Shown here one piece after another: positions 2,801-63,819 of a stretch of DNA of 64,000 bases. How positions within the stretch are numbered: position 1 is the first letter of the stretch; every line of letters begins with the position of its first letter. Below the pieces are notes generated by a model. It saw only the letters and a list, made by a program, of their open reading frames with translations. It ran no database searches and had not been told where the DNA came from. The DNA comes from an uncultured archaeon. GTDB lineage: Archaea > Aenigmatarchaeota > Aenigmatarchaeia > CG10238-14. Both the position numbers and the translations under genes were made by a program. The stretch is from positions 46,698 to 110,697 of the forward strand of contig CAYMPD010000001.1 in assembly GCA_964392445.1 (NCBI GenBank), given 5' to 3'.

Positions 2801-2865
2801 GTTAAAATTTATATGTGTGATTCTAACATAATAAGTTAGCGAGGTTAAATCTTAAAGGTTTTAAG

Positions 2866-2940
2866 AGCGAGATGGAGCAGCCTGGAGTGCTCGCGGGGCT
2901 CATAACCCCGAGGTCGGAAGTTCAAATCTTCCTCTCGCTA
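2866..2940 (+). tRNA. tRNA-Met (CAT), probable initiator
   Basis: 75-nt cloverleaf: acceptor AGCGAGA/TCTCGCT with A1:U72, D-stem GAGC/GCTC, anticodon stem CGGGG/CCCCG (three G:C pairs), loop CTCATAA (anticodon CAT), T-arm GGAAG-TTCAAAT-CTTCC. A1:U72 plus GGG/CCC is the archaeal initiator signature. Confidence 0.8.
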
Positions 2941-3001: not shown

Positions 3002-3841
3002 ATGTGGTTCATCTACGCACTACTATCAGCATTACTTCTTTCATCTTATGCCTTGTTAATGAGAAAGACTCTCAAGGATAAAGGTAATCCAATAGTGTTC
3101 ACGGTAATTCTACAGTTTGTCATTTCCTTAGTTCTAATCTCACTCCTCCCTTTTGAAAATATTAGTTATCTCTTCACTACCAATAACCTCATCGTCTTAG
3201 TTTTAGTAATCATAGGGACCGCTATTCTCGCGATATTATTCACCAAAGGTAGACAACTTGAAGAAGCTTCGAATGTTTCTATTGGCGTTCAAGTAGGACG
3301 TGTTTGGAATCTGATTGGGGCAGCATTAATACTGGGAGAAGATGTAACTGGTTACAAGATAATTGGTGTGGGATTGATTATTCTTGGAAATATTTTGATT
3401 TCGTGGAAAGGCCAAAAACTGAAATTGACTAGAGGTATGATATTCATAATTACTGGAGCTTTATTATTTGCAACTGTTAATTTTGGTGATAAGTTCCTTT
3501 TAAAAACATTTTCTACAGCCTTTTATAACCTCCTACTTTATTCCATTTCTTCAATTATCTTATTCGGATTTATTGGATTCAACTTCAAAAAACTAAAGAA
3601 AGAGTTAAAATTACATGGGTCAGTGGTGTTTCTAATCGGAATTGTTTTTGGACTAGGAATGTATTTTTTTGAATTAGCTCTTAAATTAGGAGAGGTTTCC
3701 AGGGTTTCTCCCGTCCATAGTTCTTCAATGGTTTTCACAATATTAGCGGGTATAATCTTTCTAGGAGAAAGGGATCATCTGTTAAAGAAACTAGTAGCTG
3801 GTATAATCGTCTTTCTAGGAGTCTACTTACTTATTATCTGA
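3002..3841 (+). CDS. DMT/EamA-family membrane permease
   Basis: 279 aa; about 10 predicted TM helices in two repeated halves, typical of drug/metabolite transporter superfamily. Confidence 0.55.
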   Translation: MWFIYALLSALLLSSYALLMRKTLKDKGNPIVFTVILQFVISLVLISLLPFENISYLFTTNNLIVLVLVIIGTAILAILFTKGRQLEEASNVSIGVQVGRVWNLIGAALILGEDVTGYKIIGVGLIILGNILISWKGQKLKLTRGMIFIITGALLFATVNFGDKFLLKTFSTAFYNLLLYSISSIILFGFIGFNFKKLKKELKLHGSVVFLIGIVFGLGMYFFELALKLGEVSRVSPVHSSSMVFTILAGIIFLGERDHLLKKLVAGIIVFLGVYLLII

Positions 3842-4242: not shown

Positions 4243-5646
4243 TTATGTAAATGGATCATCCAAATCAGGGGACTCTTCGAAAAGAAATAATCCACTCTTT
4301 TTATCCATCCAAACATTTCGGTATTTATTCGTTCCTAATATTTGTCTGAACAGGGTAGTAGAGGCAACTCTAAACCCTCTTCTAAGATTAACAGGTGGTA
4401 AAATGAATCCATTACCAACTACCGAAAATGGCTCTAATGTAGATACATTATCACCTTCGCGCTCAACAAAAGAACTATAGCCAATAACCGCAGCTTCCAT
4501 CCTACCACCAAAAACACCGGAATTGTTCAAAATAACTGAAGGATATAATATATCATCATCTCTTAATCCAGTAATTTCAGTATCTTGACCTATAGAAACT
4601 CCATGGCCTATAATTGAATTGCTTATGTAGATATCTCCATCACCTCTCCCAGGATTAAAATCTGATCCTATCAGAACATGGCCACCAAATTGGATTTTAG
4701 CTCTCTCTACCTCTTCTAATGATTTTTCGTGAACTAAAACTCTCCCAGACGAAGTATCAAGTCTTTCATAATCATCAAAATCCAACCAATCATAATCACC
4801 AGTAATCGCTTTACCATTAGCACGTAAATAAGCCTTGATAGTTCCAAAGTCCTCCCAATCTTCAATCCTTCCTACCCCTTGTTGCCTTTGACCATAAGCA
4901 TACATTGAAACACCCTGATCAAGGAAATAAGGGAATATATCTCCTCCCATATCATCAAGTTTTACTCCATCCTCAATACCCTCTTCTAATATGTCTAAAA
5001 TAGTTGGAGAGAACATTACAATAGCTGTATTTATATAATCTGATGCGGGATCGGGTGATTTTTCTCTGAAATCCAATATACGGCCAGATTCATCGAATTT
5101 AACTGTTCCAAATTGATCTATCCCTGGCATTGAACCCCAATAAGTTACGCCTATGGTTACTCCTGGTGCATCTTCGTGTACTCTTTGATGGTATTTAGCC
5201 ATATCAATTGGATCAAAATTTGCAAAATTATCAGCATTTAATACCAGAATCAAATTATCCTGGATTTTTTCTCTATTGTTTCTTAAAAAATGGATAAAAG
5301 CGTCACCACTGCCTTCTGTTACACTTCTTCTCTCAAGAGATTTTTCTGGATCATAATAAGTTGAATATCTAATAGATAAATTATCTGCAATATTTCTACC
5401 GTCCTTCAAATCAGCAGGTACAAAAATATCATTAGCTAATCCATGTGTTGTAATATAACCTCTAAGTTCCTCCTGGTGATCCTGGAGAGATAGATATAAC
5501 ATTTCAACTACAGCCCTTAAGGGTGTTCTATTAGCTATATCTAACCAACCCTTTGATATTCCCATCTCAACTCCACCTATGGTCAGAGGATATAATCTAG
5601 TAGCTTCTCCACCTACAGGCACATAAAATACTAATTCTTTAAGCAT
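4243..5646 (-). CDS. Sugar-1-phosphate nucleotidyltransferase (GlgC/RmlA-like) with C-terminal left-handed beta-helix
   Basis: 467 aa; N-terminal GGEATRLYPLT (G-x-G-T-R-L-x-P-L-T pyrophosphorylase signature); Gly/Ile-rich hexapeptide-like C-terminal region. Confidence 0.7.
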   Translation of the reverse strand: MLKELVFYVPVGGEATRLYPLTIGGVEMGISKGWLDIANRTPLRAVVEMLYLSLQDHQEELRGYITTHGLANDIFVPADLKDGRNIADNLSIRYSTYYDPEKSLERRSVTEGSGDAFIHFLRNNREKIQDNLILVLNADNFANFDPIDMAKYHQRVHEDAPGVTIGVTYWGSMPGIDQFGTVKFDESGRILDFREKSPDPASDYINTAIVMFSPTILDILEEGIEDGVKLDDMGGDIFPYFLDQGVSMYAYGQRQQGVGRIEDWEDFGTIKAYLRANGKAITGDYDWLDFDDYERLDTSSGRVLVHEKSLEEVERAKIQFGGHVLIGSDFNPGRGDGDIYISNSIIGHGVSIGQDTEITGLRDDDILYPSVILNNSGVFGGRMEAAVIGYSSFVEREGDNVSTLEPFSVVGNGFILPPVNLRRGFRVASTTLFRQILGTNKYRNVWMDKKSGLFLFEESPDLDDPFT

Positions 5647-5743
5647 ATTAACTCCTAATTTTTCATTTTAATGGATGTATAGGTGGTTATTCTTTTATAG
5701 TGATATCCTCTTCTTTTTTATAAGAAATGAAAAAACAGAAAAG

Positions 5744-5848
5744 TGGGCCGACCCAGAATCGAACTGAGCTTTTCGCCTATCCTGGTCATACCTGTAAGGG
5801 TTCCGCGATCAAAAGACCTCGACGTCCTAACCGATAGACTATCGGCCC
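5744..5848 (-). tRNA. tRNA-like gene with about 30-nt insertion; anticodon arm not resolvable (atypically spliced tRNA or pseudogene)
   Basis: Minus-strand sequence has perfect 7-bp acceptor stem GGGCCGA/TCGGCCC with discriminator A, canonical D-arm (GTCT-ATCGGTTA-GGAC) and T-arm (CTCAG-TTCGATT-CTGGG). The 54 nt between D- and T-arm cannot be folded into a 5-7-5 anticodon arm with any single canonical or non-canonical intron I tried. Confidence 0.45.
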
Positions 5849-5931
5849 TCAGTTAATTAATTGGATAAATTAGATTTAAAAATATATTGATAACGAAAGA
5901 AATCAAAATTAATAAAAGAAAAAAACCTGAA

Positions 5932-8031: not shown

Positions 8032-8952
8032 ATGTTTGGTATTCTGAAAAAGAAATTACAAAACGTAGTTCAATCAGTGACAAAGACTGCGGAAAAGGCC
8101 CCAAAGAAAATTATTAAAAAAAAGATTTCCGAAAAAGATTTATCGCAAGTTCTGGAAGATTTAGAACTGAGTTTACTCCAGGCGGATGTAGCTTTTGAAG
8201 TTTCTGAAAAGATAAAAAAAGACCTTAAAGATGCTCTAGTCGGAAAGCAGGTTAAAAGGGGAAAAGTAAAGAAAATAGTGGAAAAAACTATTAGAAAGAG
8301 TTTACTTGAAATCTTGGATGTCCCTAAACTTGATCTGGAAAAGAAAATTAAAGGAAATAAACCTTACCTTGTTTTGTTTCTAGGATTTAATGGTTCAGGG
8401 AAGACTACTACACTCGCTAAAATTGGTCATAGATTAAAAAAGAAGGGGTATTCATGTGTATTTGCGGCCGGAGATTCTTTTAGGGCAGCGGCAATAGAAC
8501 AATTAGAAGAGCACGGAGAGAAATTAGGGATAAAAACAATCAAACATAAGATGGGGGCAGACTCTGCGGCAGTTATTTACGATGCAGTTGAACATGCTAA
8601 ATCAAAGGGAATAGATGTTGTTCTTGCTGACAGTGCGGGAAGAATGCATACCAATCAAAATCTTATGGATGAACTCAAAAAAATAGTTAGAGTTAATAAA
8701 CCTGATTTGAAAATACTTGTTATTGATTCTTTAACTGGGAATGATGCTATTGAGCAGGCTAAGAGATTTGATGAGGTTGTCGGGATTGATGGGGCAATTT
8801 TGACTAAGGTTGATGTTAATCCTAAGGGCGGTGCTATACTTAGTGTTTGTAAGATTCTTGGTAAACCTGTTGTTGGACTGGGTATGGGTCAGAATTATGA
8901 GGACTTGAAAAAGTTTGATAGAGAAGAGTTTGTTGGGAATTTGTTGGGTTAA
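8032..8952 (+). CDS. ftsY: Signal recognition particle receptor FtsY
   Basis: 306 aa; SRP GTPase NG domain: GFNGSGKTTT (G1), DSAGRMH (G3), TKVD (G4). Confidence 0.9.
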   Translation: MFGILKKKLQNVVQSVTKTAEKAPKKIIKKKISEKDLSQVLEDLELSLLQADVAFEVSEKIKKDLKDALVGKQVKRGKVKKIVEKTIRKSLLEILDVPKLDLEKKIKGNKPYLVLFLGFNGSGKTTTLAKIGHRLKKKGYSCVFAAGDSFRAAAIEQLEEHGEKLGIKTIKHKMGADSAAVIYDAVEHAKSKGIDVVLADSAGRMHTNQNLMDELKKIVRVNKPDLKILVIDSLTGNDAIEQAKRFDEVVGIDGAILTKVDVNPKGGAILSVCKILGKPVVGLGMGQNYEDLKKFDREEFVGNLLG

Positions 8953-9360: not shown

Positions 9361-10686
9361 ATGGCACTCAAAGACATGGGAAAGAGTATAAGCGACTTAA
9401 TGAGGAGAGTACTAACCAAAACAACGGTTGACAGGGACTCTGTAGAGGCTTTAGTAAAGGGTCTTCAAAAAATCCTTCTAAAAGCGGATGTTGACCTTAA
9501 ACTAGTTTATGATCTCTCCCAAAGAATAAGAGACAGATCACTCAAGGAAAAACCACCAGAAGGGTTAACACTCAGAGAACATGTAAGTAAGGTAATCTAC
9601 GAGGAACTGGTAAACTTGCTCGGAGAAAGTCAAGAAACACTGATTGGAAAGAAAAGGATAATGCTTGTCGGTCTCTTCGGATCGGGGAAAACTACTAGTT
9701 CAGCTAAAATAGCAAAACACCTGAAAAAACAAGGTTTAAGAGTAGGAATGATCGCTGCAGATTATCACCGTCCCGCTGCCCCACAACAATTACAACAATT
9801 AGGAAATAAAATAGATGTTCCTGTTTATTACTCAGATACTAAAAGCCCTTTGGAGGCTTTAAGGTCGGGATTAGCCAAATTTCATAAATTAGATAGTATT
9901 ATAATCGACACTGCAGGTAGAGATGCTTTAGACGAAGAACTAGCCGAAGAGCTAAAAAAAATGTACGAAATTGTTAAACCAGACGAAGTTCTATTAGTTA
10001 TACCTGCGGATATAGGGCGTATAGCAGGAAAACAGGCTAGAGAGTTCCATAAGCTCGCTAAAATAACCGGGATTATTGTTACTAAAACAGATGGTACTGC
10101 AAAAGGAGGAGGCGCACTCTCGGCTTGTTCTAACACGGCGGCAAAGGTTAAGTTTATTGGTACTGGGGAGAAGTTGGATGATTTTGAACCTTATGATCCT
10201 GTTAGGTTTGTTTCCCGACTTTTAGGTATGGGGGACCTTGAAGGGCTTCTGGAAAAAGCAAAGGATGCTGAATTTAAAGAAGAAGATATGCAAAAAATAC
10301 TCTCTGGTAAGTTCAGTCTTCAAGATTTCTATGACCAAATATCGGGAATGGACAAGATGGGACCACTGGATCAAGTGATGGACATGATTCCTGGAATGGG
10401 GCACATGGTACCGGATGATATGATAAAAACTCAGAAAAAAAAGATGAAGAAGTGGAAATATATTATGGATTCTATGACTAAGAAAGAAAGAGAGGGTGAA
10501 GATGATATTCATGCATCGAGGATTAAAAGGATCGCTAAAGGTTCTGGAACACAAGAAAGTGATGTTAGGGAATTATTAAAACAGTATAGACAAAGTAAGA
10601 AAATGATTAAAAAACTTGGTGGGATGAAAGGTATGAAAAGAGGTAATCTTGCTAAGATGGCTAAGAAATTGGGTATGAAGTTATGA
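9361..10686 (+). CDS. srp54: Signal recognition particle protein SRP54
   Basis: 441 aa; NG domain GLFGSGKTTS, DTAGR, TKTD; Met-rich M domain (MGDLEGLL...MDMIPGMGHM). Confidence 0.95.
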   Translation: MALKDMGKSISDLMRRVLTKTTVDRDSVEALVKGLQKILLKADVDLKLVYDLSQRIRDRSLKEKPPEGLTLREHVSKVIYEELVNLLGESQETLIGKKRIMLVGLFGSGKTTSSAKIAKHLKKQGLRVGMIAADYHRPAAPQQLQQLGNKIDVPVYYSDTKSPLEALRSGLAKFHKLDSIIIDTAGRDALDEELAEELKKMYEIVKPDEVLLVIPADIGRIAGKQAREFHKLAKITGIIVTKTDGTAKGGGALSACSNTAAKVKFIGTGEKLDDFEPYDPVRFVSRLLGMGDLEGLLEKAKDAEFKEEDMQKILSGKFSLQDFYDQISGMDKMGPLDQVMDMIPGMGHMVPDDMIKTQKKKMKKWKYIMDSMTKKEREGEDDIHASRIKRIAKGSGTQESDVRELLKQYRQSKKMIKKLGGMKGMKRGNLAKMAKKLGMKL

Positions 10687-11900
10687 AAGTAAAAGAAAAA
10701 CTAATCAAAGTCCTGGAAGATGAATACGTCTGCAATAGATGTTTAGGAAGACAGTTTGCTAATCTACTTTCAGGCTACACAAACGAAGAAAGGGGTGAAA
10801 TACTCAGACAATACCTAGCCATGCTAATCGACTCAGGAGAGAAAATAGAGATTAACAAAACCAATTTCTACGAAATAAAATTTCATCTAAAGACTATAAA
10901 ACCCAAAAAACCAGGAAAATGTTCTGTTTGCGGGGATTTATTCCCGAAACTTAAAAAAAAAGTGAAAAAAATAGTTAAGAAATTGGGAAATTACGATTAT
11001 GGTACATTTCTAGTAGGTTCTAGGCCTTCTTCTGAATTGCTCAATAAAGAACAAAGACTCTGGGAAAAAGTAGGCATAGAATGGTGCGAAACCATAAAAT
11101 CAGAGATTAATCGGGTAATTGGAAAGGAAATTGAATCATCTACAGGAAAAGTTATGAAAAGAAAGCTTCCGGATATAACCATACTTTATGACATGACTAC
11201 AGACGAAATAAAACTCAACGTCCGCTCAATCTTTGTTTACGGAAAGTATCAAAAACTGGTTAGAGATATGCCTCAAACAACCTGGAAAACAAGAATTTAC
11301 CCTGTTGCTGTTGAAGATATTGTAGCAGAGCCTTTTATGAAGCAAACTAAAGCCGAAGATCATACGCTTCACGGCTGTGGGAGGGAAGACGTAGATGTTA
11401 AATGTCTGGGTTGGAGGCCTTTTGTTTTGGAACTACATAATCCTCAAAAAAGAGAGATTGATCTTAAGAAAGCAGAAAAAAAGGTAAACAAGTCCAAAAA
11501 AGTGAATGTAAAAGACTTAGAAATAACCAATCACAGGAGAGTGACCAGAATCAAATCAATGAGACCGGACAAAACTTATCTAGCAGAAGTAGAATTCAAA
11601 GAACCATTAAAAAACCTGGAAGAATTAGAAGCTCTCAATGGAACAGTAATATCCCAGAAAACACCTACAAGAGTGATGACAAGAAGAGCAAACAAGACCC
11701 GAAAAAGACGGGTAAAGGATATAAAATATAAATCCCTAAACAAAAAGAAGTTGGAATTGACGGTAAAAACAGAAGCAGGAACATATATCAAAGAACTGAT
11801 TCATGGAGACGAGGGTAGAACCCAACCCAACATATCAGAATTAATAAACAATAAAGTTAAAAGTATAAAGTTAGATGTAATAAAAGTACATTGTGATTGA
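10683..11900 (+). CDS. pus10: tRNA pseudouridine synthase Pus10
   Basis: 405 aa; N-terminal Zn-ribbon with CNRCLGRQF (Pus10 CxxCLGR motif) and second CxxC; catalytic-core signature GREDVDVKCLG containing the catalytic Asp. Confidence 0.8.
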   Translation: MKVKEKLIKVLEDEYVCNRCLGRQFANLLSGYTNEERGEILRQYLAMLIDSGEKIEINKTNFYEIKFHLKTIKPKKPGKCSVCGDLFPKLKKKVKKIVKKLGNYDYGTFLVGSRPSSELLNKEQRLWEKVGIEWCETIKSEINRVIGKEIESSTGKVMKRKLPDITILYDMTTDEIKLNVRSIFVYGKYQKLVRDMPQTTWKTRIYPVAVEDIVAEPFMKQTKAEDHTLHGCGREDVDVKCLGWRPFVLELHNPQKREIDLKKAEKKVNKSKKVNVKDLEITNHRRVTRIKSMRPDKTYLAEVEFKEPLKNLEELEALNGTVISQKTPTRVMTRRANKTRKRRVKDIKYKSLNKKKLELTVKTEAGTYIKELIHGDEGRTQPNISELINNKVKSIKLDVIKVHCD

Positions 11901-13571: not shown

Positions 13572-13643
13572 GCCCTTGTAGTTTAATGGATAGAATATCT
13601 CCCTGCGGAGGAGGCGATCCGAGTTCGAATCTCGGCAAGGGCA
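13572..13643 (+). tRNA. tRNA-Arg (GCG)
   Basis: 72-nt cloverleaf: acceptor GCCCTTG/CAAGGGC + A, D-arm GTTT-AATGGATA-GAAT, anticodon stem TCTCC/GGAGG loop CTGCGGA (GCG), V CGAT, T-arm CCGAG-TTCGAAT-CTCGG. Confidence 0.85.
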
Positions 13644-18157: not shown

Positions 18158-19093
18158 TTAATCTTTCTTCAACTTAATCTTCATCATATCTCTAGCAACA
18201 ACAGCATCAGGAAGAACTTCTCTTGCTTGGTCTTCCAGTTCTTTAGGATCAGTATATCTTCGGCTAATATGAGTGAGAATAAGTTTCTTAACACCAGCTT
18301 TCTTTGCCAATCTTGCGGCTTCTTTAACATCAGCATGAGCCTTAGAACCAACATCTTCCTCGAGGAAAGTCCCGTCATGTATCAGAAGATCCGCGTTCTT
18401 AGAAATTTTAATAATATTATCACAGGGAGCAGTGTCCCCAGAATAAACAACCTTCAAACCTTCCTTCACATAACCAACATCCTCTATCCTAATCTCCTTA
18501 TCTTCCCAAACCATCTTATCTTCCTTTTTCAATTTTTTAAGCCATGGTCCTCTATTTATCCCCATCTCCTCAAGCTTATCCTCATAAATATTCCATTTAT
18601 CTTTCTCCTTAAAACAAAAACCAACAGTAGGAACAGAGTGAAGAACAGGTATTGAACTTATCTCGTAGTTCTCATCCTCGTCTATTTTAGTAATCTCACT
18701 ACCTTCAAACGGGACATTCACTGCTTTAACTGGGAATCTTAATCCAAAGTAACCCATGTCAAGGATGTTTGATACAAATCTTTCAGCCTCGGGAGCAAAT
18801 ATGGTCAAAGGTTTGTCTCTTTTTTCCAGGTTCATAGTTTGTATAAGTGGTATTAATCCCGCAAAATGATCAGCATGCCAATGACTGATAAAAATCTTGT
18901 CAATCGCCATAAAACTTACATCCGACTTCATCAGTTGTTTTTGGGTTCCCTCCCCACAGTCGAAAAGAAATACCTGTCTTTCATTTGTAAAATGTTCTAG
19001 AACTATTGCTGGGTGATTCCTATGAAGACTAGGTATGCCTGACACTGTACCAAGGAATGTTATTGTTATCATAAGTAATTCTTTTAACCTCAA
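18158..19093 (-). CDS. rnz: Ribonuclease Z (tRNA 3' endonuclease)
   Basis: 311 aa; metallo-beta-lactamase motif HWHADH and downstream His/Asp ligands; size of short-form RNase Z. Confidence 0.85.
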   Translation of the reverse strand: MRLKELLMITITFLGTVSGIPSLHRNHPAIVLEHFTNERQVFLFDCGEGTQKQLMKSDVSFMAIDKIFISHWHADHFAGLIPLIQTMNLEKRDKPLTIFAPEAERFVSNILDMGYFGLRFPVKAVNVPFEGSEITKIDEDENYEISSIPVLHSVPTVGFCFKEKDKWNIYEDKLEEMGINRGPWLKKLKKEDKMVWEDKEIRIEDVGYVKEGLKVVYSGDTAPCDNIIKISKNADLLIHDGTFLEEDVGSKAHADVKEAARLAKKAGVKKLILTHISRRYTDPKELEDQAREVLPDAVVARDMMKIKLKKD

Positions 19094-63490: not shown

Positions 63491-63544
63491 CTCATCACCA
63501 AAATAGAAGCGCCCTGGACGGGATTTGAACCCGTGTCCCGGGAG

Positions 63545-63562
63545 TTCTCCCACTTAAAGTGT
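63545..63562 (-). other. tRNA-Asp intron 2 (about 18 nt, canonical 37/38)
   Basis: ACACTTTAAGTGGGAGAA follows anticodon-loop CTGTCA and precedes C38-TCCCG. Confidence 0.6.
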
Positions 63563-63575
63563 TGACAGTCCCGGA

Positions 63576-63605
63576 TTCTACAACATTTTAAATCATTAAA
63601 TGTTT
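63576..63605 (-). other. tRNA-Asp intron 1 (about 30 nt, D-arm region, non-canonical position about 24/25)
   Basis: Sequence AAACATTTAATGATTTAAAATGTTGTAGAA (RNA sense) interrupts ...TATCA | TCCGGGA...; boundaries +/-2 nt. Confidence 0.55.
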
Positions 63606-63705
63606 TGATAGACCGAGCTACACTACCAGGGCAGATTAGGTTAAAACAGAATTTTGTAGTTTGTTTTTGGGAGATCAATAAACAACACCGGGGTAATTAT
63701 TAAAT

Positions 63706-63819
63706 AGTTGGCAACGTCCTGGATTTCCCGCCAATGGCAGTACACCCCAGATCACTAGAGGTCTTAATTACCGTGTTCGGATGAGAACGGATGTTTCCCC
63801 TCTGTTTTGGTCGCCAACT
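63706..63819 (-). rRNA. rrf: 5S ribosomal RNA
   Basis: Minus-strand RNA of about 114 nt with 10-bp terminal helix I (GUUGGCGAC/GUUGCCAAC with a G-U that is an A-C mismatch on the other strand), GUUCUCAUCCGAACACGGUAAUUAAG (loop C/helix III CCGAAC...GUUAAG consensus) and GUACUGCC; TTTAAAT TATA box about 25 nt upstream. Confidence 0.75.

Follow-up and report, generated by a model that had tools for sequence, protein, structure and literature searches.

The motif known as bulge-helix-bulge (BHB) and found at the exon-intron junctions of archaeal tRNA precursors consists of a 4-bp helix between two flanking 3-nt bulges, with the cut after the second nucleotide of each bulge and with the anticodon's first two bases lying inside the helix (PMC4090602), and this is the definition that we use throughout. 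Known introns of this kind measure 11-129 nt, and position 29/30 is among the listed non-canonical intron sites and is also a site at which tRNA genes are split (PMC4090602). Descriptions of genes with several introns, in which canonical and non-canonical BHB introns occur together, come chiefly from Thermoproteales, and a single gene may hold as many as three (PMC4033280). In DPANN archaea tRNA gene disruption is increased and tRNA sets look incomplete to standard predictors. This pattern is associated with variants of the splicing endonuclease EndA, namely epsilon2 in ARMAN-2 and alpha4 with an L3 loop in several DPANN lineages (Kaneta et al. 2018, PMC5829648).

Here we analyze a stretch of 64,000 nt, hereafter the window, from an uncultured archaeon of Candidatus Aenigmarchaeota (DPANN). 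Positions 5744-5848 of its minus strand very probably hold a functional-looking tRNA-Val(UAC) gene with two predicted BHB introns, a reading drawn from the gene and its orthologues. The gene resembles the known multi-intron tRNAs (for example Pyrobaculum tRNA-Pro, with three introns; the field of SPLITS/SPLITSX and of the archaeal mode of tRNAscan-SE) in having short introns within BHB or relaxed motifs, in combining a canonical 37/38 with a non-canonical 29/30 position (PMC4090602), in yielding a normal cloverleaf, and in being missed by standard detectors; across the tRNA-Val alleles considered below, the introns span 11-20 nt. It is unlike the crenarchaeal multi-intron tRNAs in that its host is a low-GC DPANN archaeon, and unlike the known multi-intron cases in that close relatives of the window differ by both introns together. 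The disruption described for DPANN concerns the same superphylum and the same rise in non-canonical and multiple introns, but that survey sampled Pacearchaeota, Woesearchaeota, Nanohaloarchaea and Mancarchaeum (PMC5829648), whereas the window gene comes from Aenigmarchaeota, for which we found no description of tRNA introns in the literature searched. The split tRNA-Ala of Caldivirga maquilingensis is broken at the same point, 29/30 in the 5' strand of the anticodon stem, and follows the same BHB logic, but its pieces come from separate loci, and in the window gene a 19-nt intron links them in cis. Multi-intron archaeal tRNAs are well established as a phenomenon, and the Aenigmarchaeota gene is ordinary in kind.

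Results

The 105-nt minus-strand sequence of 5744-5848 is GGGCCGAUAGUCUAUCGGUUAGGACGUCGAGGUCUUUUGAUCGCGGAACCCUUACAGGUAUGACCAGGAUAGGCGAAAAGCUCAGUUCGAUUCUGGGUCGGCCCA. The gene bounds are exact, with G1 at 5848 and the discriminator A73 at 5744, and the pair list bears out the intact acceptor, D and T arms that a preliminary description had reported: the acceptor stem has 7 bp (GGGCCGA/UCGGCCC), the D stem 4 bp (GUCU/GGAC) and the T stem, with its loop UUCGAUU, 5 bp (CUCAG/CUGGG). CCA is absent from the encoded 3' end. The preliminary description had found no foldable anticodon arm, and had considered two or more unusual introns, a permuted or trans-spliced tRNA half, or a decayed tRNA left as an integration scar. 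Its failure to fold the middle holds up. When every single-intron removal from the 54-nt middle is enumerated, 0 solutions have a 5-bp stem with at most one G-U pair, a 7-nt loop with U33 and R37, and a variable loop of 4-5 nt; the standard single-intron tRNA that had been named as the outcome that would overturn the observation did not appear. The suggestion of two or more unusual introns was the right one, with one intron at a non-canonical position (29/30) and the other at the canonical position (37/38).

Removal of both introns (Table 1) leaves a 72-nt product, GGGCCGAUAGUCUAUCGGUUAGGACGUCGCCCUUACAAGGCGAAAAGCUCAGUUCGAUUCUGGGUCGGCCCA, in which 21 of 21 cloverleaf pairs form, U33 and A37 are present, and which ARAGORN reads as tRNA-Val(tac). 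With intron 1 alone taken out, ARAGORN already gives Val(tac) with a 14-nt canonical intron. Excision of intron 1 joins UCG to CC, giving the stem strand UCGCC, the full complement of GGCGA, and excision of intron 2 closes the anticodon loop (CUUACA plus A). The assignment to valine is borne by the anticodon UAC, the 7-nt loop CUUACAA, A73, and orthology to recognized tRNA-Val genes. Two loop-like stretches singled out earlier find their place in this structure. CUUUUGA, proposed as the loop of a tRNA-Lys(UUU), sits inside intron 1, in its hairpin loop region, so the lysine guess was wrong. CUUACAG, noted as loop-like and unpaired, was close: its CUUACA does belong to the anticodon loop, but the final G is the first base of intron 2.

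Table 1. Features of the 64-kb window, in window coordinates; RNA nt are counted from the 5' end of the 105-nt (Val) or the tRNA-Asp precursor.
Feature	Position	Strand	Description
Initiator-type tRNA-Met	2866-2940		Intron-less
NDP-sugar pyrophosphorylase	4243-5646	-	Downstream of tRNA-Val
T-rich trailer CUUUUCUGUUUUUUC	5729-5743	-	Probable transcription termination signal
tRNA-Val exon 3	5744-5778	-	RNA nt 71-105: A38, GGCGA, variable loop AAAG, T arm, acceptor 3' strand, A73
tRNA-Val intron 2, 14 nt GGUAUGACCAGGAU	5779-5792	-	Canonical position 37/38; RNA nt 57-70
tRNA-Val exon 2 CCCUUACA	5793-5800	-	RNA nt 49-56: last two nt of the anticodon-stem 5' strand and loop 32-37 including UAC
tRNA-Val intron 1, 19 nt AGGUCUUUUGAUCGCGGAA	5801-5819	-	Non-canonical position 29/30; RNA nt 30-48
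tRNA-Val exon 1	5820-5848	-	RNA nt 1-29 = tRNA positions 1-29: acceptor 5' strand, D arm, G26, anticodon-stem UCG
A/T-rich TATA-like box ATATATTTTTAAAT	5874-5887	-	Putative archaeal promoter, about -39 to -26 from G1
Pus10 tRNA pseudouridine synthase homologue	10683-11900	+	Assigned by synteny with L001
tRNA-Arg	13572-13643		
tRNase Z-type metallo-beta-lactamase (tRNase Z homologue)	18158-19093	-	
RNA polymerase subunit ORF, 855 aa	55126-57693	-	
tRNA-Asp(GUC), two introns	63510-63632	-	Just downstream of 5S rRNA
tRNA-Asp canonical intron, 18 nt	63545-63562	-	Position 37/38; RNA nt 71-88
tRNA-Asp intron, 30 nt	63576-63605	-	D-stem 3' strand, about 24/25; RNA nt 28-57
5S rRNA	63706-63818		

At the default settings ARAGORN calls only the tRNA-Met and the tRNA-Arg in the window, and Rfam only these two and the 5S rRNA; at 5744-5848 ARAGORN makes no call and Rfam reports nothing, at the gathering threshold or at E<=10. 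In its intron mode, ARAGORN offers a poor one-intron model of a tRNA-Cys(ACA), whose anticodon stem contains an A-A mismatch and two G-U pairs and whose long extra arm is unpaired. The two short introns that interrupt the gene are the reason that neither the standard tRNA finders nor the preliminary description could fold it.

Each of the two introns lies in a BHB motif whose central helix carries one mismatch. For intron 1, the bulges are C28 G29/A30 on the 5' side and A47 A48/C49 on the 3' side (the slash marks the cut); the central helix is formed by U27.G43, G26-C44 and C25-G45 with an A24xG46 mismatch, the inner hairpin GGUC-UUUU-GAUC has 4 bp, and the outer helix has 3 bp (A21-U52, G22-C51, G23-C50). 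For intron 2, the bulges are C36 A37/G and A U/A38, the central helix consists of C32-G, U33.G and U34-A with an A35xC65 mismatch, the inner helix has 2 bp, and the outer helix is the 5-bp anticodon stem itself. In H/h1/h2 terms intron 1 scores 3/3/4 and intron 2 scores 3/5/2, with three of four positions paired in each central helix. The positions 29/30 and 37/38 and the lengths of 19 and 14 nt are inside the known range (11-129 nt, PMC4090602).

How easily could such an arrangement come about by chance? A paired anticodon stem can be obtained from six two-intron solutions, and in only one of the six do both junctions lie in BHB motifs; we rejected the five other junction sets, which have no BHB motifs. 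At least one paired two-intron solution turns up in 22% of 1000 shuffled middles (in 10% with an all Watson-Crick stem), and because of this a paired solution alone is weak evidence. BHB motifs are much rarer: with random junctions in shuffled precursors, the quality seen at intron 1 was reached in 0 of 12000 trials and that seen at intron 2 in 0.3%. The case for a two-intron tRNA-Val rests on the BHB geometry together with the orthologues. The minimum free energy fold of the precursor (-39.3 kcal/mol) is in another register than the BHB model (-22.4 kcal/mol, counting the listed pairs only), and this register is broken in the orthologues L005 and L019. One further candidate, deletion of a 3-nt AGG to give a tRNA-Gln(UUG), which is also what ARAGORN suggests when intron 2 alone is removed, was rejected: 3 nt falls well short of the smallest known intron, 11 nt (PMC4090602), the junction lacks a BHB motif, and the orthologues are valine tRNAs.

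The same gene is found without introns in relatives of the window, whose contigs we designate by L numbers. Nine distinct relatives have an intron-less tRNA-Val(UAC) of 72-73 nt at the syntenic site, and these match the predicted spliced product. The JGI contig L001 carries the 72-nt gene GGGCCGATAGTCTATCGGTTAGGACGGTGCCCTTACAAGGCATAGAGCTCAGTTCGATTCTGGGTCGGCCCA at the orthologous intergenic site, and this differs from the predicted product only at 27:43 (U-A to G.U), at 28:42 (C-G to U-A) and at one variable-loop base. The eight others (L007, L008, L009, L010, L012/13, L015-18, L020 and L021) were obtained by pattern scans and by look-ups through the conserved 242-aa neighbor. Without exception the intron-less orthologues read as Val(UAC) and have CUUACAA as their loop, and the five that were scanned score 56.6-62.3 bits against Rfam RF00005 and are called Val by ARAGORN. 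Aligned with them, the predicted product shows 95% mean column identity. Among seven aligned mature sequences a standard pair fills each of the 147 pair cells, the pairs 27:43 and 28:42 have changed on both sides, and exon 2 is invariant across the seven orthologues.

Both introns recur at identical junctions in three relatives, L005 (15 and 11 nt), L019 (20 and 14 nt) and L022 (15 and 12 nt). Across the four intron-bearing alleles, exons are 89-99% identical and introns 50-73%; the neighboring protein is only about 60% identical among these lineages. All four share one BHB geometry, with an intron 1 inner hairpin that varies from 2 to 5 bp, and in L019 a change of exon C25 to U25 in the central helix of intron 1 is matched by an intron change from G to A that keeps the pair. 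Exons and splice motifs are under evident constraint across the four lineages. The first 26 nt of exon 1 are identical in L001 and L005, and the A/T-rich box is kept, as the block TTTTTAAATCTAATTTATCCAATTA, upstream of the orthologues in L001, L008 and L009. An exact search with a 25-mer from exon 1 against genome contigs gave 0 matches, and look-ups of contigs encoding FtsY or the exact NDP-sugar pyrophosphorylase found no record.

The genomic surroundings are archaeal (class I LysRS, Cdc6, prefoldin and FtsY in the window), and the best protein relatives and DNA-pattern matches are Aenigmarchaeota MAGs, as are the best relatives of the NDP-sugar pyrophosphorylase. L001, with 76% identity in the pyrophosphorylase, is fully syntenic: LysRS, Cdc6, EamA, a 108-aa protein, the pyrophosphorylase, the tRNA, the 242-aa protein, wHTH, prefoldin, FtsY, SRP54 and Pus10. 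The neighbors had looked accessory, but they are not: the block of 242-aa protein, wHTH, prefoldin, FtsY and SRP54 is conserved beside the tRNA across Aenigmarchaeota contigs. Four contigs were set aside: L002 and L003 have distant pyrophosphorylase homologues with no synteny and no tRNA, and L004 and L006 carry an unrelated tRNA-Glu(UUC) with the same D arm. The contig L011 stops short of the tRNA site. Intergenic content around tRNA-Val varies, with a glycosyltransferase, Q_salvage, MazE or LAGLIDADG-like ORF in other relatives. The pyrophosphorylase gene downstream of the tRNA is missing in L005 and L007, and L005 has an insert of about 1.2 kb (119-1399), including a 231-aa ORF (418-1113), between its 242-aa-protein homologue and tRNA-Val.

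Other tRNA genes in these genomes are interrupted as well. Just downstream of the 5S rRNA, the window has a hidden two-intron tRNA-Asp(GUC), whose D-stem intron has a BHB with H 4/4 and a 7-bp inner helix; with both introns out, ARAGORN reads the 75-nt tRNA as Asp(gtc). Default ARAGORN and Rfam miss this gene, and ARAGORN -i miscalls it as SeC(tca). Two-intron genes therefore make up two of the four tRNA genes in the 64-kb window. In L001 the orthologue of the initiator-type tRNA-Met (8460-8555, -) is interrupted in its D loop, where 21 nt (AGAUUCAUUUGAAUCCUCUAU) follow nt 14 and show a good BHB-like motif (H 4/4, 5-bp inner helix); both Rfam and ARAGORN miss this gene. Val introns are present only in the window and the iMet intron only in L001, so intron presence is reciprocal between the two genomes. 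In L015, L017 and L018, the iMet orthologue (-, positions 38-166 of the reverse complement) is 129 nt long, versus 75 in the window, and contains three insertions (14, 16 and 24 nt) at about 29/30, 37/38 and 43/44. The insert at 29/30, ACAAUUUGGCGAAA, is built like Val intron 1, with an AA bulge coming after a GCGx helix strand, and by hand its central-helix pairs are 4/4 Watson-Crick.

Several side observations concern the same contigs. In L008, ARAGORN -i proposes a 148-nt 'tRNA-Gly(ccc)' with a 57-nt intron (3354-3501, -), which may represent a further multi-intron tRNA. The acceptor 5' strand (AGCGAGG) has a copy 28 nt upstream of tRNA-Met in the window (2838-2865) and in L001 (about 8556-8583, -); it is conserved in both genomes as AGCGAGGTTAAA(T/C)CTTA... 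and could be a leader element or a duplication remnant. The RNA polymerase subunit ORF looks interrupted by a putative homing-endonuclease or intein-like segment, with a LAGLIDADG/intein-like block visible by eye in the translation (...GWFSGAYLSEGSC...LLRGYFDGDGSV...VTHNT).

Discussion

We read the locus as a tRNA-Val(UAC) gene with two introns, and other readings of it have to be weighed against this one. It might be a former tRNA-Val with two junk insertions, a pseudogene or integration scar that no longer functions, as the preliminary description had considered. Standard detectors do miss the gene, and most relatives have a clean intron-less gene at the site. The insertions, however, are exactly where excision restores a perfect cloverleaf, they are flanked by BHB geometry, and they have the same junctions in four lineages, with conserved exons, diverged introns and one compensated helix pair. 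Nor does the neighborhood resemble a scar: neither an integrase nor a partial copy of the tRNA lies next to it, the gene is complete in length, the neighbors are conserved core genes, and the flanks (from the 242-aa protein to SRP54 on one side, Cdc6 and LysRS on the other) are syntenic in relatives, the tRNA-Val site itself in more than ten of them. No other tRNA-Val was found in the window, which also speaks against this reading. We regard decay as very unlikely.

Even less probable, to the point that we give them almost no weight, are two readings with a different architecture. ARAGORN -i models the window gene as a class-II-like tRNA-Cys(ACA) with a single 20-nt intron at 31/32 and a long extra arm, and it has a similar model for L005, but the anticodon stem of this model is defective, as described above, its 'extra arm' forms no helix, and its junction has no BHB (sets shifted from the chosen junctions reach at most H 2 for intron 2, and H = 1 for a shifted intron 1). 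Every intron-less orthologue, moreover, is Val(UAC) with the loop CUUACAA. The locus could alternatively be part of a split, permuted or trans-spliced tRNA, dependent on a partner transcript encoded elsewhere; only the initial failure to fold the middle pointed that way, although 29/30 is a known split site in the Caldivirga tRNA-Ala (PMC4090602). The three exons are nevertheless contiguous and colinear inside 105 nt, in order at one locus, and together make a complete tRNA, and on these grounds the permuted or trans-spliced half is rejected.

The exon-intron structure of the tRNA-Val gene, its BHB geometry and its orthology to intron-less tRNA-Val genes can be read directly from the sequences. 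By analogy with archaeal tRNA processing (PMC4090602, PMC5829648), a precursor of about 105 nt would be transcribed from the upstream TATA-like box, EndA would cut after the second nucleotide of each 3-nt bulge (G29/A30, A48/C49, A56/G57 and U70/A71), and an RtcB-type ligase would join the three exons. RNase P and tRNase Z would trim the ends and CCA would then be added, a step that is called for because CCA is not encoded. The outer helix of intron 1 (nt 21-23 paired to 50-52) and the central helix of intron 2 overlap at nt 51-52, and the full anticodon-stem helix for intron 2 is available only after excision of intron 1. This overlap and this dependence suggest that splicing is probably sequential, with intron 1 removed before intron 2. 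The motif of intron 1 pairs the D-stem 3' strand (A21-C25) with exon 2 and the intron, and so the precursor would need a non-cloverleaf fold. Such precursor folds are usual for non-canonical introns. Neither EndA nor RtcB was found among the 20 window ORFs scanned with Pfam; homologues of tRNase Z and Pus10 are encoded in the window (Table 1).

The distribution of the introns is patchy. Across 13 distinct orthologous loci both introns are present in four, neither in nine, and exactly one in none. The anticodon stem goes with the introns: all intron-bearing alleles have UCGCC/GGCGA, and all intron-less ones (G/U/C)UGCC/GGCA(U/G). In a neighbor-joining tree of the adjacent 235-242-aa protein, a tree of a single protein that cannot separate repeated loss from lateral spread, the window groups with intron-less L001 and L008, and L019 with L012, which is intron-less too; the grouping of the window with L001 and L008 is supported by gene order, in that they share the pyrophosphorylase insertion. 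Several en-bloc losses of the introns with parallel stem change would fit this pattern, and en-bloc loss could proceed via a reverse-transcribed spliced tRNA. An anticodon-arm allele that spread laterally or through gene conversion would fit it too. Because of the distribution over the 13 loci, the tracking of the stem variant, the neighbor-protein tree with the gene order, the similarly rapid and reciprocal intron turnover in iMet and Asp, and the design that the 29/30 intron of iMet in L015 shares with Val intron 1, we tentatively speculate that the introns and the linked stem variant (C28-G42/U27-A43) form one allele or cassette that is gained and lost en bloc, and possibly passes from one Aenigmarchaeota lineage to another, through lateral transfer or gene conversion, although we consider this idea doubtful as it stands.

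In the window, two introns each hide two of the four tRNA genes from default ARAGORN and Rfam, and the tRNA complements of MAGs from Aenigmarchaeota and other DPANN will look incomplete unless intron-aware tools are used. Since tRNA genes can be hidden by introns in this way, an apparently missing isoacceptor should not be read as a sign of genome reduction or host dependence. The loci with and without introns, together with the reciprocal differences in iMet, provide a clean comparative series for the gain and loss of archaeal tRNA introns, and this series bears on how a DPANN splicing endonuclease deals with non-canonical sites. If the introns and their stem variant do prove to behave as a cassette, the clade would be a natural system in which to date and dissect archaeal tRNA intron gain and loss.
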